In this document: positions 33,012-42,912 of the stretch, piece after piece
How positions within the stretch are numbered: position 1 is the first letter of the stretch
Layout of the letters: each line of letters begins with the position of its first letter
Assembly: GCA_947258785.1 (NCBI GenBank)
Contig: CAMYJT010000005.1
Coordinates: 26,993 to 90,992 of the forward strand
DNA from: an uncultured Gammaproteobacteria bacterium
GTDB taxonomy: Bacteria; Pseudomonadota; Gammaproteobacteria; Arenicellales; JAANXG01
DNA: 64,000 bases
Direction of reading: 5' to 3'
Program-made: the position numbers and the translations under genes
The notes under the pieces: model-generated
The model's database searches: none
The model's input: only the letters and a program-made list of their open reading frames with translations
Told to the model about the DNA's origin: nothing

Positions 33012-33587
33012 ATGACACATAAAAGTACTAAAAATACAAACGTATTTGGTGGGCTTGTCACCTCGAAAATACGCATACAGATTCTCATGCGCTTGCTCTT
33101 GAATCCTCAAAACAAGGCCTATCTGCGCGGAATGGCCAAGGAATTCGGCGCCTCCCCAGGCCAGCTGCGAGACGAGCTCAACCAGCTCGCAAACGCCGAC
33201 ATCCTCAAAACCGAACGAGTCGGGCGCCAGGTGTTTTACCAGGCCAATCGCGAGCACGCGTTGTTTCCCGAGCTCAACTCCATGGTGCGCAAAGCACTGG
33301 GTATGGATCGTATCCTCGACAGTATCCTCCGGCGCCTGGGAGACCTCGAGCGCGCTGCCCTGATCGACGACTATGCGGAAGGCAGGGACAGCGGGCTCAT
33401 CGACCTGGTGCTGCTCGGCAATATTGACCACGACAACCTCTCTGATCTGACGCGCAAGACGGAGAAGTACCTGAGCCGGCGGATCCGCACCCTGGTCTAC
33501 GAATCCGGCGACGAGCGGGCGTTTGAAAACCTGCTGAAGGGGAGACCGAGCCTATTGCTCTGGAAAAGGGGCACCGATGACAGATAG
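33012..33587 (+). CDS. ArsR-like winged-HTH regulator with C-terminal degenerate nucleotidyltransferase-like domain, paralog 1
   Basis: The wHTH region is FGGLVTSKIRIQILMRLLLNPQNKAYLRGMAKEFGASPGQLRDELNQLANADIL. The C-terminal region contains DSGLIDLVLLG. I chose the start at 33012 because MTHKSTKNTNVFGG aligns residue-for-residue with MNNKLNKYQNLFGG of the paralog at 42313-42912. Confidence 0.6.
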   Translation: MTHKSTKNTNVFGGLVTSKIRIQILMRLLLNPQNKAYLRGMAKEFGASPGQLRDELNQLANADILKTERVGRQVFYQANREHALFPELNSMVRKALGMDRILDSILRRLGDLERAALIDDYAEGRDSGLIDLVLLGNIDHDNLSDLTRKTEKYLSRRIRTLVYESGDERAFENLLKGRPSLLLWKRGTDDR

Positions 33588-34446
33588 CCGCCGGGCTCCC
33601 GAACTGCCGGAAGTCATCTACACACCAGAGAGCCGCATCAAGCATCCGGTCGAGATGTTGCGCGACATGTGGCGTGACATACTGGCGGCCAGGGAGCTCG
33701 GTTGGCGTCTCACGGTACGGGACATCAGTGCCCAGTATCGCCAGACTTTTCTGGGTTACTTCTGGGCCTTCGTGCCGGCGCTGGTTACCGGCGCCACCTT
33801 GTCCATCGCCAGCCGCAACCGGGTGGTCGATTTCGGCGAAGCCGACATCCCTTACACGGCCTATGTCATTATCGGCATGGTGCTGTGGCAGACATTCATG
33901 GAGTCGATGACACTCCAAATCCAGGCGATGAGTAAAGCGAGGGAGATGCTAGCCAAAATCAATTTTCCCCGTGAAGCCTTGATCCTGTCCGGTCTAGGGC
34001 AGACCCTATTCAACTTCGGAATCAAAATCCTGCTGCTCGCCGCGACATTCGTCTGGTTTGACCTGTCGGTACCCGCTACCATCCTGCTGGCGCCTTTTGC
34101 GCTGGTGTTGCTGCTGGTACTCGGAACCGGCCTAGGGGTGCTGCTCGCACCGCTTGGTGGGCTTTACGAAGACGTCGGGCGTGGCATCATCTTCAGTGCA
34201 ATGGCGTTGTTGATCGTTACACCTGTGGTATTCGTCCCGCCGGATGGCGGAACCTTCGCCGAGATTGTGGCCCTGAATCCGATCACGCCGCTTTTGGTGA
34301 CGACACGGGATCTGATGACCACCGGCACCATGACCCATCCATTGGGATTCTTCCTGGCCTCGTTATTCGCTGTACTACTGCTGTTGGCTGCGTGGACCGC
34401 CTACAGGTTGGCGATGCCGATCATTATCGAAAGGATGAGCGCATGA
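33577..34446 (+). CDS. wzm: ABC-2 type polysaccharide export permease (Wzm)
   Basis: The 289-aa 6-TM ORF contains RDISAQYRQTFLGYFWAFVPAL, which is typical of Wzm/TagG/KpsM. It is translationally coupled to wzt through an ATGA overlap. Confidence 0.85.
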   Translation: MTDSRRAPELPEVIYTPESRIKHPVEMLRDMWRDILAARELGWRLTVRDISAQYRQTFLGYFWAFVPALVTGATLSIASRNRVVDFGEADIPYTAYVIIGMVLWQTFMESMTLQIQAMSKAREMLAKINFPREALILSGLGQTLFNFGIKILLLAATFVWFDLSVPATILLAPFALVLLLVLGTGLGVLLAPLGGLYEDVGRGIIFSAMALLIVTPVVFVPPDGGTFAEIVALNPITPLLVTTRDLMTTGTMTHPLGFFLASLFAVLLLLAAWTAYRLAMPIIIERMSA

Positions 34447-35645
34447 GCGGCGAAGTCCTAGTTGAAGTCGACAACGTTTCGAAGAAGTTCTGCCGGGACC
34501 TCAAACGGTCGTTGTGGTACGGCGTCAAAGACTTGAGCGGAGAGCTGACCGGAAGAACGCAACATGACGCTCTTCGTGAAGGCGAATTCTGGGCCGTCAA
34601 AGATGTCTCGTTTCAGGTCCGACGCGGCGAAGTGCTGGGTTTAATCGGACCAAACGGCGCCGGCAAAAGTACATTGCTCCGAATCCTCAACGGACTAATT
34701 AAACCAGACCGTGGCAAGATAATTATCCGCGGGCGTGTCGGAGCTCTTATTGCTCTTGGAACCGGATTTAATCCGATACTTACCGGCAGAGAGAATGTCT
34801 ATAACGCTGGTGCGGTATTGGGGTTGAAGAAGAAGGAAATCGAAGACAGATACGAGTCAATTGTCAAATTCTCAGAACTCGAAGAGTTTATGGAATCCCC
34901 GGTTAGGAGCTACAGCTCTGGTATGAAAATCAGATTGGGATTCGCAATTGCTGCACAAATGCAGCCTGATGTATTGATTCTGGACGAAGTGCTGGCCCTG
35001 GGTGATGTTGCGTTCAAGGCTAAAAGCTTTAATCGCATCTACTCTATGACTGAGCACGCCGCAGTAATTCTAGTAAGCCACTCAATGGCACAGATCTCCC
35101 GAGTGGCGACTAAAACATTGGTCATACGAAATGGTAAACAGGCTTTTTATGGCGCAAGTGTTGGTGAGGGGATATCAGAGTATTACAAAGATGCTCCAAA
35201 TAAATTACCGGCAAATGACTTTGTCAGCGATCTCGCAAGAATCGATCGCGTGGAAATTGAGATCAACGGTCAGCAAGGCCTGGAGACTGTGCGATCTTTA
35301 GACCATGTTGCGATAAAGATATTGGCAAGGATTGACGGCAGTGTGGATAGGTTTTCGCTAAATATAGTATTTTTTTCCGAAGAGTTAATAAATTTCATGT
35401 CGTGCAATTCGTTCTTCGATGGCGTTACGTTTTTAAATTCGAATTGTTCTAATGAAATTGTACTAGAAATTAGAAACTTGAACCTCAACCCGGGCAGGTA
35501 CTACGTATGGATCGCCGTTCTACGGAACGATTTCGGTGAAATCCTCGCGCGGAATGCAAGTGCCGGCATGATAAATATCGTCGGACCGCACAAGGGGAAC
35601 GAACCAGTGCGTCTCAAAGGGCAGTGGACTCACAAGCAAGTGTAA
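34443..35645 (+). CDS. wzt: ABC polysaccharide export ATPase (Wzt) with C-terminal glycan-binding-type extension
   Basis: Walker A is GPNGAGKST, the signature is YSSGMKIRL and Walker B is VLILDE. About 150 further residues (DRVEIEINGQ...GRYYVWIAVL...) resemble the Wzt_C beta-sandwich. The start at 34443 overlaps the wzm stop. Confidence 0.8.
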   Translation: MSGEVLVEVDNVSKKFCRDLKRSLWYGVKDLSGELTGRTQHDALREGEFWAVKDVSFQVRRGEVLGLIGPNGAGKSTLLRILNGLIKPDRGKIIIRGRVGALIALGTGFNPILTGRENVYNAGAVLGLKKKEIEDRYESIVKFSELEEFMESPVRSYSSGMKIRLGFAIAAQMQPDVLILDEVLALGDVAFKAKSFNRIYSMTEHAAVILVSHSMAQISRVATKTLVIRNGKQAFYGASVGEGISEYYKDAPNKLPANDFVSDLARIDRVEIEINGQQGLETVRSLDHVAIKILARIDGSVDRFSLNIVFFSEELINFMSCNSFFDGVTFLNSNCSNEIVLEIRNLNLNPGRYYVWIAVLRNDFGEILARNASAGMINIVGPHKGNEPVRLKGQWTHKQV

Positions 35646-41880: not shown

Positions 41881-42273
41881 TCACAGTCGAATCTTTTCGA
41901 TCACGGCGGTGGTCGAGATGGCTGGAGTCCGCGGGAGGTACATCACCTCGCACAGGTCCGAGAACTGATCAAATCGTCCCTCCCAATCGTCGCCCATCAC
42001 CAGCAGGTCCGCTTCATATTGCCGGATGTATTCGCCCTTCGCCTCCAGTGAGTGCTCGAGAAACACATATTCCACATAACGTATCGCCTTTATGATCTCC
42101 AGTCTTTCTTCCTCTTGGTAGACCGGGTACCTCCCCTTTTTCGAATAGTTGAGGGCGTCCGTGGACACACCGACGACCAGAGACGTACCGAGATTCCTGG
42201 CGCGCTCCAGGATTTTCAGGTGTCCGACATGGAACACGTCAAAGGTGCCGAAAGTGATAACTGTTTTGTACAT
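41881..42273 (-). CDS. tagD: glycerol-3-phosphate cytidylyltransferase
   Basis: The 130-aa ORF begins VITFGTFDVFHVGHLKILERA, which carries the HxGH motif. The C-terminal region RTPAISTT carries the RTxGISTT-type motif. Confidence 0.88.
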   Translation of the reverse strand: MYKTVITFGTFDVFHVGHLKILERARNLGTSLVVGVSTDALNYSKKGRYPVYQEEERLEIIKAIRYVEYVFLEHSLEAKGEYIRQYEADLLVMGDDWEGRFDQFSDLCEVMYLPRTPAISTTAVIEKIRL

Positions 42274-42312
42274 CTATAGTCTCCGATGATGCGCATTCGC
42301 TTCCGCGCCCAT

Positions 42313-42912
42313 TCACTGCGGTAGTGTAATCCGGCCTTGCCTTCGCATCGTTGAATCGCGCCACAGCGTCAGCCTGGGTCTGTTTTCAAAAATACCTATG
42401 TTTTGTTCGTACTCGCTCCGGTCCATGCTTAGAACACGTATCTTGCGGCCGATGTGTTTCTCAGTTTCACGCACCAATTCATGCACATGTGTGCGATCGA
42501 TGCGCCCGACCAGCACCAGGTCGATCAATCCCGAGTCCTTACCCGTCGCATAGTCGTCGAGCAACAGCGCCAGCTCCAAGTTGCCGATATGGCGAATGAC
42601 ACTTTCCAGAATTTCATCCATACCCAAGGCCTTCATGACCATGGAGTTGAGCTCTGGAAACAAGGCGTGCTTGGTGTTGGCCCGGTACAGAATGTGCCTG
42701 CCCTCGGGGCTACTCTCCAACAGCCCGGCCTCGGTCAGCTGATGCAACTCTTCCTTGATAAGGCTGGGCGATATAACGAACTCCTTGGCCAGCTCCCTGA
42801 GGTAGGCGCGCTCGCTCGGGTTCAAAAACAAACGCATGAGTATCCGCACGCGGGTCTTTGAGGTAATGAGTCCACCGAAAAGGTTCTGGTATTTGTTCAA
42901 TTTATTGTTCAT
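42313..42912 (-). CDS. ArsR-like winged-HTH regulator with C-terminal degenerate nucleotidyltransferase-like domain, paralog 2
   Basis: The 199-aa ORF is collinear with the 33012-33587 product, at roughly 55-60 percent identity by hand alignment. Shared blocks include HALFPELNSMV, KALGMD and DSGLIDLVL. Confidence 0.6.
   Translation of the reverse strand: MNNKLNKYQNLFGGLITSKTRVRILMRLFLNPSERAYLRELAKEFVISPSLIKEELHQLTEAGLLESSPEGRHILYRANTKHALFPELNSMVMKALGMDEILESVIRHIGNLELALLLDDYATGKDSGLIDLVLVGRIDRTHVHELVRETEKHIGRKIRVLSMDRSEYEQNIGIFENRPRLTLWRDSTMRRQGRITLPQ

Follow-up and report, generated by a model that had tools for sequence, protein, structure and literature searches.

A 64-kb window (64,000 nucleotides of contig CAMYJT010000005.1, assembly GCA_947258785.1, from an uncultured Gammaproteobacteria bacterium) contains two related winged helix-turn-helix (wHTH) genes, whose products are called hereafter P1 (33012–33587, + strand) and P2 (42313–42912, − strand; positions are those of the window). 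We find it likely that P1 and P2 are self-repressing regulators, placed at the heads of two operons and each gating the glycan cassette downstream of it. This conclusion draws on what was observed in silico, namely homology, fold, the conservation and position of the operator, and the genes in the neighbourhood. Both proteins belong to a large family, about 190 residues in length and present in Gammaproteobacteria and Desulfobacterota, in which an ArsR-type winged helix is joined to a domain of nucleotidyltransferase fold without catalytic motifs. Judged from their sequences, P1 and P2 are best filed as a HEPN-less, catalytically dead branch of a helix-turn-helix (HTH)–minimal nucleotidyltransferase (MNT) antitoxin family, which would have been reused to regulate glycan cassettes. 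The main value of the analysis lies in a concrete operator, a promoter layout and an evolutionary path, with which a large unannotated family becomes open to direct testing.

P1 and P2 share a winged helix and a predicted nucleotidyltransferase-like domain

P1 (191 aa) and P2 (199 aa) were aligned by BLASTP without any gap, with 99 identities over 188 positions (53%, E-value 4e-72). The collinear, ungapped alignment had been noticed in the original prediction, which was made from the sequence by eye; its estimate of 55–60% identity over some 150 residues was slightly too high for the identity and too short for the span. At the DNA level, identity in register is 57% over 564 bases, and the longest run identical in the two genes is the 17-mer gagctcaactccatggt (33270–33286), the same run that had been quoted before. 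P1 has kept all 38 residues that are invariant in the family.

In P2, the N-terminal domain matches the Pfam profile HTH_5 with 24.9 bits (cut-off 22). The best PDB sequence match of the N-terminal half is an ArsR. The full-length model, with a predicted local distance difference test score (pLDDT) of about 90 over residues 20–80, adopts the winged helix-turn-helix fold, and a Foldseek search of the PDB with it returned the MarR-family protein ZitR and the ArsR/SmtB-family proteins SqrR, CzrA, SmtB and HlyU (E-values of about 1e-4). Given their 53% identity and these ArsR-type profile and fold matches, P1 and P2 are homologous wHTH proteins, as predicted.

They resemble the ArsR/SmtB repressors in winged-helix fold and, in part below threshold, in sequence profile, but several differences set them apart. 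Both remain under the cut-off of the metalloregulator subfamily profile NF033788 (35.9 bits for P2 and 31.4 for P1, versus 55), both carry an extra MNT-like domain of 100 residues, neither shows evident metal-sensing sites, and both are found in the context of glycan genes, not of metal resistance. The family gave 2453 database matches, and mean column identity was 60% in an aligned sample of 57 close homologues. The nearest relative of P2 comes from an uncultured gammaproteobacterial metagenome-assembled genome.

The sequence DSGLIDLVL(V/L)G occurs in the C-terminal part of both proteins, within a family-invariant block DDYAxGxDxGxxDL. Searches of this domain against Pfam and NCBIfam were empty, and the NTP_transf_2 and Polbeta profiles did not match it even at E-values up to 1. 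Because Foldseek returned wHTH matches only for the full-length protein, the C-terminal 104 residues were modelled separately (model ma334f8f49d9b, pLDDT 78.5). The MNT core fold (alpha-beta-alpha-beta-alpha-beta) was present in this model. Its top 16 Foldseek matches in the PDB were without exception MNTs or nucleotidyltransferases related to them, led by MntA 6m6u (E-value 2.3e-4, probability 1.0, template modelling (TM) score 0.55). A profile search with the same domain led to the Sulfolobus nucleotidyltransferase 2rff (E-value 0.043), in which FGSRARGDYLDTSDIDI is aligned to DDYAeGk..dsGlIDL.

Inspection of the alignments revealed that the two catalytic motifs of such enzymes are absent. 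At the end of strand 1, the place of hG[GS] is taken by D119-D120, which align to the GS of 2rff and of the canonical family member P0234 (described below) and are invariant or almost so in the sampled close homologues. In strand 2, only D131 is left of the [DE]x[DE] metal pair, the first acid being L or I, or lost in a two-residue gap relative to SDIDL. At the positions of the former active site, D120, Y121, A122, G124, D126, G128, D131, E151, R156 and R159 are invariant across the family. The C-terminal domain is, as modelled, a degenerate MNT by its fold, with the catalytic motifs absent; this idea, already put forward from the motif alone, is now backed by the fold match, by the profile match to 2rff and by the alignment to P0234. 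Taken together, profile and structure searches recovered an ArsR-type HTH for P2 (sub-threshold for P1) and an MNT-like fold, but no NTP_transf_2 profile match.

A palindrome is conserved at the promoters of the family

Species-representative genomes were scanned for relatives of P1 and P2. At least 568 stretches encoding them were found, mainly in Gammaproteobacteria and Desulfobacterota; of these, 79 loci were retrieved (given below with L numbers). Alignment of the regions upstream of the wHTH genes revealed a palindrome in nearly every locus. At most 110 nt upstream of the gene, 50 loci have an exact GTTC-N9-GAAC and 14 have an exact GAGTA-N7-TACTC, which together account for 64 of the 78 genes. 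The locus DNA, 1.245 Mb in all, contains only 83 sites of this kind; the majority mark the start of a wHTH gene, and the others are about as numerous as expected by chance. Counts of exact patterns are reported here because an unbiased search for the best palindrome, which picked the operator in most loci, was noisy.

A −10-like TAnnnT abuts or overlaps the left arm of the palindrome at 55 of the 64 sites, and TTGAC is found at −35 distance at 42 of them, versus about 2% expected by chance. Repressors of the ArsR/SmtB type usually act as dimers bound to a palindrome that overlaps the promoter, and the candidate operator of the P1/P2 family fits this mode. The regulator, presumably dimeric, would bind a palindrome of 19–25 bp placed next to, or across, the −10 and transcription start of its own sigma-70 promoter. 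The DNA-binding regulatory role first proposed for P1 and P2 thus gains backing, at the sequence level, from the conservation of the palindrome at the family's own promoters (64/78 loci).

The two classes of palindrome go along with different recognition helices, STN[AS]VREELNQLT with GAGTA and mostly SPS[QHVLIR] with GTTC. This match fits a direct read-out of the palindrome, as far as sequences can suggest it, but it is not an independent proof, since the two classes are also clades. A finer link, between L or I at helix residue 51 and the half-site GTTCAT, was tried and was unconvincing: all three GTTCAT sites go with L or I, yet other proteins with L51 have GTTCT.

An inverted repeat located, as in most loci, between promoter and coding region could form a hairpin if transcribed, and the palindrome might then be an RNA element of the 5′-untranslated region, acting on translation or stability, with the wHTH protein acting elsewhere. 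We regard this as scarcely probable. The −10 abuts or overlaps the left arm and transcription would start 6–8 nt further on, which would leave the left arm untranscribed. Moreover, the arms keep a specific sequence beyond mere complementarity, the palindrome sequence switches together with the recognition helix, and a scan of the entire 64-kb window with Rfam gave 0 family matches. A start 6–8 nt past the −10 would fall inside the palindrome, which argues for a DNA operator blocking RNA polymerase.

Further operator-like palindromes precede other genes near the wHTH gene at L067 12384, L019 5007, L035 8903 and L072 1529. In L067, GTTCTTTTTATCAGAAC is placed 76 nt upstream of an internal gene, and in L035 a GAGTA-type site stands ahead of the gene just upstream of the regulator. 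These extra sites hint that some regulons have more than one. In L038, a run of heptamer repeats (CAACCTT / AAACCTT) extends around 4060–4190, some 130 nt ahead of the conserved N-terminus. The run, which falls between the wHTH coding region and an operator-like site (4027), could be a slippage-prone, phase-variable tract.

Promoters and candidate operators of P1 and P2

The two best promoter-like matches between 32.5 and 43.3 kb are directly upstream of P1 and P2, both of the form TTGACA-16-TATNNT and matching at 10 of 12 positions. For P1 (32977–33004, + strand), TTGACA is followed after 16 nt by TATGTT, which stops 7 nt short of the ATG (33012). The P2 promoter (42922–42949, − strand), the top match of the region, consists of TTGACA (42949–42944), 16 nt and TATTGT (42927–42922); it is contained in a 174-bp gap shared with the divergent pilB gene. 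With a near-consensus promoter directly upstream of each, both genes are first in their operons, as had been claimed.

In the two genes, the −10 ends 7–9 nt before the ATG and no Shine-Dalgarno sequence is visible. These features suggest that the P1 and P2 mRNAs are probably leaderless. Such a start, likely leaderless and lacking a ribosome-binding site, would explain why the public record for P1 (P0271, 100% identity) is shortened to 166 aa, with a start about 25 residues too late that cuts into the conserved N-terminus.

The candidate operator of P2 (42903–42927, − strand) is a perfect 12+1+12 palindrome, TATTGTTCATAA-A-TTATGAACAATA, self-complementary at 24 of 25 positions, which spans both the −10 (42927–42922) and the ATG (42912–42910). 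With a position weight matrix (PWM) built from 49 other loci it scored 31.0 bits, whereas the maxima of 50 shuffled sequences averaged 4.6 bits (standard deviation 4.1) and reached 17.6 at the highest.

The second-best site of the 64 kb (PWM window 33021–33045) is found just inside the coding region of P1. It corresponds to GTACTAAAAATACAAAC (33025–33041, + strand; codons 5–10), with an intact left arm and a right arm CAAAC where orthologues have AGAAC. In three orthologues of the P1 subclade (L082–L084, 69–75% identity), codons 5–10 likewise contain the site, as a perfect GTACTGAAAAACAGAAC, so that GTACTAAAAATACAAAC is read as its homologue in P1, in which the right arm has degenerated. The promoter layout of these orthologues is similar, with a −35 TTGACA or TTGACT, a −10 TAAACT (L082, L084) or TACGCT (L083) and six bases between the −10 and the start codon; the layout of L082 and L084, TTGACA-17-TAAACT-6-ATG, corresponds to that of P1. 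Since the operator of P1 is half-degenerate, P1 and P2 are not equivalent.

Two other candidates were discarded. TGTTAC-N7-GACACA, at the −10 of P1, was dropped as its operator because the PWM scan and the orthologues favour GTACT-N7-CAAAC at 33025–33041. A terminator-like match (42852–42833) lies inside the P2 coding region, and such matches are as numerous as shuffled sequences lead to expect, so it was attributed to chance. Past the P2 start (42880–42912, − strand), GAAC recurs at a spacing of 12 nt (ATGAAC...TTGAAC...CAGAAC), and the last copy occupies the place homologous to the right arm of the internal operator of the P1 type. These repeats may be left over from an operator that once had another position.

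Each regulator gene leads a glycan operon

The operon led by P1 (33577–40588, + strand) contains wzm, wzt, a 1010-aa sulfotransferase–glycosyltransferase 2 (GT2)–glycosyltransferase 4 (GT4) fusion gene, a GT4 gene and a methyltransferase gene, as assigned with Pfam and NCBIfam. Gaps between its genes do not exceed 22 bp where the genes do not overlap, and the wzm ATG at 33577 overlaps the P1 stop codon. On the opposite strand, the operon led by P2 (40636–42273, −) consists of a tagD-like gene (41881–42273; CTP_transf_like), 39 bp from P2, and a tagF-type gene (40636–41817; Glyphos_transf) for a CDP-glycerol (cytidine diphosphate-glycerol) glycerophosphotransferase. The tagD-like product scored 129.7 bits with TIGR01518 (glycerol-3-phosphate cytidylyltransferase), under the cut-off of 165.4. 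The gene content agrees with the earlier description, as does the convergence of the two operons, across the 47-bp gap 40589–40635.

The wzt product has ABC_tran and Wzt_C domains. Over 34443–38656, its C-terminal carbohydrate-binding-type domain (Wzt_C) is sub-threshold, and the gene that follows is the 1010-aa sulfotransferase-like/GT2/GT4 fusion. By analogy with some O-antigen systems, the combination of Wzt_C, fusion gene and terminal methyltransferase suggests a chain-end modification that might gate export.

The association with glycan genes is not particular to this window. At least three co-directional genes follow the wHTH gene in 51 of 61 loci, with a median run of 7, and wzm or wzt is found within six genes downstream in 33 of 61. 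Among the next two genes (a set of 138), the Pfam families encountered most were ABC2_membrane (21), ABC_tran (16), epimerase/dehydratase (12), Wzt_C (8), Polysacc_synt_2 (7) and Polysacc_synt (6). Upstream, pil genes were present in 26 of 65 loci, and the 642-aa protein encoded next to pilA (see below) in 20 of 65. The order pilA, 642-aa protein, GT2, GT4, wHTH, wzm, wzt recurs in both phyla, and precomputed annotations of seven further loci were concordant with the glycan context. The survey of homologues therefore supports a strong association with glycan loci, on the counts of co-directional runs, of wzm/wzt and of next-gene Pfam families.

As the regulator gene comes first in a tightly packed, co-directional operon, autorepression would gate the whole cassette: polymer synthesis and export by Wzm/Wzt for the P1 cassette, CDP-glycerol and glycerol-phosphate transfer for that of P2. 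With its weakened operator, the P1 cassette is probably less tightly self-repressed, or dependent on P2.

Several points weigh against this role. The P1 operator scored just 4.8 bits, within the range of shuffled sequences, and P1 may not autoregulate; its HTH_5 match is only 12.5 bits, under the Pfam cut-off of 22. The exact palindrome is missing in 14 of the 78 loci. Phylogeny confounds the association of each operator class with its recognition helix, the two clades differing at many other positions. The C-terminal model is of moderate confidence, with TM-scores of about 0.5 to MNT structures, and gene calls in the loci were crude (greedy longest open reading frames (ORFs), labelled with the window's own proteins). 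DNA binding, the repressor sign, the dimeric state and any ligand are what we infer from the observations above.

Two tandem wHTH-wzm-wzt modules were observed in L024 (wHTH genes at 3051–3602 and 10910–11461), with near-identical promoter and operator in each, which indicates that several cassettes, each with its own regulator, also coexist beyond this window. At the level of function, RfaH/ops and the UpxY/UpxZ proteins of Bacteroides are comparable: they are encoded, or act, at the head of long polysaccharide operons, and coexisting cassettes can each carry their own copy, as with P1 and P2 or in L024. RfaH and UpxY/UpxZ are NusG-like antiterminators and their inhibitors. They have no homology to P1 and P2, in which, unlike in these systems, a wHTH and a promoter-overlapping palindrome point to repression at initiation.

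The residues at the former active site, invariant but changed, suggest that binding, whether of a ligand, of a partner or in a dimer contact, is most likely still a function of the C-terminal domain and would set the affinity for DNA. One version of this is that the nucleotidyltransferase-like pocket binds a nucleotide or nucleotide-sugar from the cassette, such as CDP-glycerol for P2, and thereby releases or strengthens DNA binding. It extends the autorepression explanation and does not replace it; we consider it unlikely. The domain does come from a nucleotide-binding fold, and invariance from D120 to R159 speaks for a conserved pocket, not a decayed one. However, the same conserved domain heads cassettes of unrelated chemistry (tagD/tagF, NeuB/aminotransferase, or Wzx-type with sulfotransferases), so that a cassette-specific product is an improbable ligand. 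Furthermore, two aspartates stand in place of the glycine-serine motif that binds triphosphate, and a triphosphate should thus be repelled. A common metabolite or a protein partner is possible as the signal.

The family looks like a former antitoxin

Both proteins match the PADLOC profile PDC-M05A (PDLC04368) across their two domains, with 97.3 bits for P2 and 92.6 for P1. PDC-M05 is a two-gene candidate defence system, nucleotidyltransferase plus HEPN, with the architecture of HEPN/MNT toxin–antitoxin modules (PMC12988326). PDC-M05A has been described as an ArsR-like HTH joined to a KNTase-like nucleotidyltransferase, and with the one PDC-M05 representative tested, E. coli was protected against one or more of three phages, T7, T5 and T4 (PMC12881386). 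The view that the family appears uncharacterised has therefore to be qualified, since known relatives exist; in the literature, PDC-M05 is covered and nothing was found on the glycan-associated subfamily.

P0234 is a canonical member. It has the GS...SDIDL motif (GSYAEGEDDTWSDIDL), aligns with P2 over the two domains at 33% identity (E-value 2e-29), matches Pfam NTP_transf_2 and Polbeta, and is followed by an overlapping HEPN gene. P0129, with a GD-type motif, heads a glycosyltransferase/epimerase cluster. Among family representatives at 50% identity, the motif is DD in 18, GD in 31 and canonical GS in 5. A HEPN-linked relative (L085) has palindromes as well, of the GGTAC-N5-GTACC type and just upstream of its gene.

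P1 and P2 thus share with PDC-M05A the order of an ArsR-like HTH followed by a KNTase/MNT-like domain, and with its canonical member P0234 the presence of palindromes just upstream. In contrast to PDC-M05A, they lead long glycan operons and not a two-gene module, and no HEPN gene is adjacent to either of them, the next genes being wzm and tagD. Their DD replaces the catalytic GS, a two-residue deletion takes the first Asp of DxD, and they lack the Pfam NTP_transf_2/Polbeta match that P0234 has. A similar comparison holds for the HEPN-MNT pairs of MntA/HepT type (Shewanella SO_3165/3166; 6m6u, 7bxo, 5yep; HI0073/HI0074). The C-terminal fold of the P1/P2 family resembles theirs (Foldseek E-values 2e-4 to 1e-2, probability 0.97–1.0), whereas those antitoxins are, according to the titles of the PDB entries, active AMP-transferases that modify the HEPN toxin, and P1 and P2 are without catalytic residues and without toxin, with a wHTH fused in front. 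Because the catalytic motifs are gone, no HEPN gene follows P1 or P2 and the canonical relative P0234 has both, the family looks, from its sequences, like an ex-antitoxin that has lost toxin and enzyme activity alike. It would derive from the HTH-nucleotidyltransferase antitoxin of HEPN/MNT modules (PDC-M05A), the HEPN toxin partner having been lost.

Alternatively, P1 and P2 might still be antitoxins of a working HEPN/MNT or phage-defence module (PDC-M05), with the toxin encoded elsewhere and the glycan context incidental, as defence genes collect in variable islands. The strong PDC-M05A matches of both proteins and the anti-phage activity of one PDC-M05 representative in E. coli (PMC12881386) are in favour of such a role, together with toxin–antitoxin genes beside homologues (PIN in 5 of the 138 next-two genes, a HEPN and MNT pair in L009). 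We nevertheless judge it quite improbable. The P1 stop overlaps wzm and 39 bp separate P2 from tagD, with no HEPN gene after either. Among called ORFs of at least 90 aa, from 78 loci and the 64-kb window, no PF05168-type HEPN was found, and HI0074-type proteins were found in two loci only. The GS and first-Asp positions needed for AMPylation of a HEPN toxin are gone, and chance embedding would not place the gene so regularly first in glycan operons, and this in two phyla.

If the derivation from an antitoxin is true, it is a clear case of a toxin–antitoxin component that became an ordinary transcription factor, with intermediates still visible, since the motif passes from GS through GD to DD and a HEPN partner accompanies only the canonical form. 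Thousands of proteins labelled just 'ArsR family' or 'winged helix' would acquire a testable role and a defined candidate operator, and genes that match PDC-M05A of PADLOC but have no HEPN partner probably do not serve in defence. It is conceivable, but decidedly unlikely in our estimate, that the domesticated antitoxin is a portable 'cassette switch', by which each horizontally mobile module for surface glycans in the pilin-glycosylation island brings its own operator and self-repressing regulator. The remodelled pocket would then sense a common signal (nucleotide, lipid-carrier state, phage or pilus stress), and related regulators, having similar half-sites, would cross-repress, P2 acting on the weak site of P1, to make cassettes coordinated or mutually exclusive and so diversify pilus or surface glycans against phages.

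Small toxin–antitoxin genes were often seen right after the wHTH gene and before the glycan genes. They are of the PIN type in L004, L050, L051, L060 and L073; in L009 (10546–11263), a full pair of NTase_sub_bind (HEPN-type/HEPN-like) and MNT (Polbeta) genes occupies this position.

P1 and P2 most likely arrived with separate cassettes

The two genes had been proposed to be a matched pair and an old duplication. That they arose by duplication inside the island and co-evolved appears very improbable. Their collinearity from the ATG, a 10-residue N-terminal extension ahead of the conserved FGGL in both, and the TTGACA-16-TATNNT promoter that they have in common would be expected of duplicates. 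However, P2 is less similar to P1 than to any of the 55 sampled homologues, and P1 is less similar to P2 than to 54 of these 55. The best outside matches reach 69–75% for P1 and 69% for P2, versus 53% between the two, which also belong to different subclades and differ in promoter layout. Identity at third codon positions is down to 38%. Guanine plus cytosine (GC) content differs as well, being host-like at 57–58% for P1 and wzm (33–34.4 kb) and 47–55% from wzt through P2. On these comparisons of sequence, P1 and P2 most likely arrived with separate cassettes and were not duplicated here.

The whole stretch between 27.5 and 43 kb forms an island in the type IV pilus locus, with pilS-pilR-pilA on one side and pilB-pilC-pilD on the other, a setting that the original prediction had missed. 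Its left flank (23673–27475, + strand) carries pilS, pilR and the type IV pilin gene pilA (Pfam 6TM_PilS/HisKA, Sigma54_activat, Pilin and N_methyl), and its right flank (43087–47597, + strand) carries pilB, pilC, pilD and coaE (Pfam T2SSE, T2SSF, Peptidase_A24, CoaE). Between 35 and 43 kb, the GC content drops to 45–52%, from about 58% in the window. The island seems to be a patchwork that goes back to two or more acquisitions, and the two cassettes would have been inserted between pilA and pilB. The analysis points to large regulated glycan cassettes at this location in uncultured Gammaproteobacteria and Desulfobacterota. In Pseudomonas, pilin glycosylation genes also sit between pilA and pilB, and glycosylation of the pilin blocks pilus-specific phages (bioRxiv 10.1101/150227).

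The pilin-proximal part of the island (27580–32737, + strand) encodes the 642-aa protein, a GT2, a GT4 and a Stealth protein, as assigned with Pfam and NCBIfam. For the 642-aa protein, which follows pilA, searches of Pfam, NCBIfam and PADLOC returned no match save a meaningless 17-bit one to PilW. The top NCBIfam matches of the GT2, all sub-threshold, are polyprenyl-phosphate glycosyltransferases (AglJ, PpgS, ArnC-like). The trio of 642-aa protein, GT2 and GT4 recurs beside pilA in many Gammaproteobacteria and Desulfobacterota (L003, L009, L010, L013, L019–L021, L025, L043, L045, L081). It looks like a pilin-glycosylation module, in which the 642-aa protein is a possible membrane glycosyltransferase.

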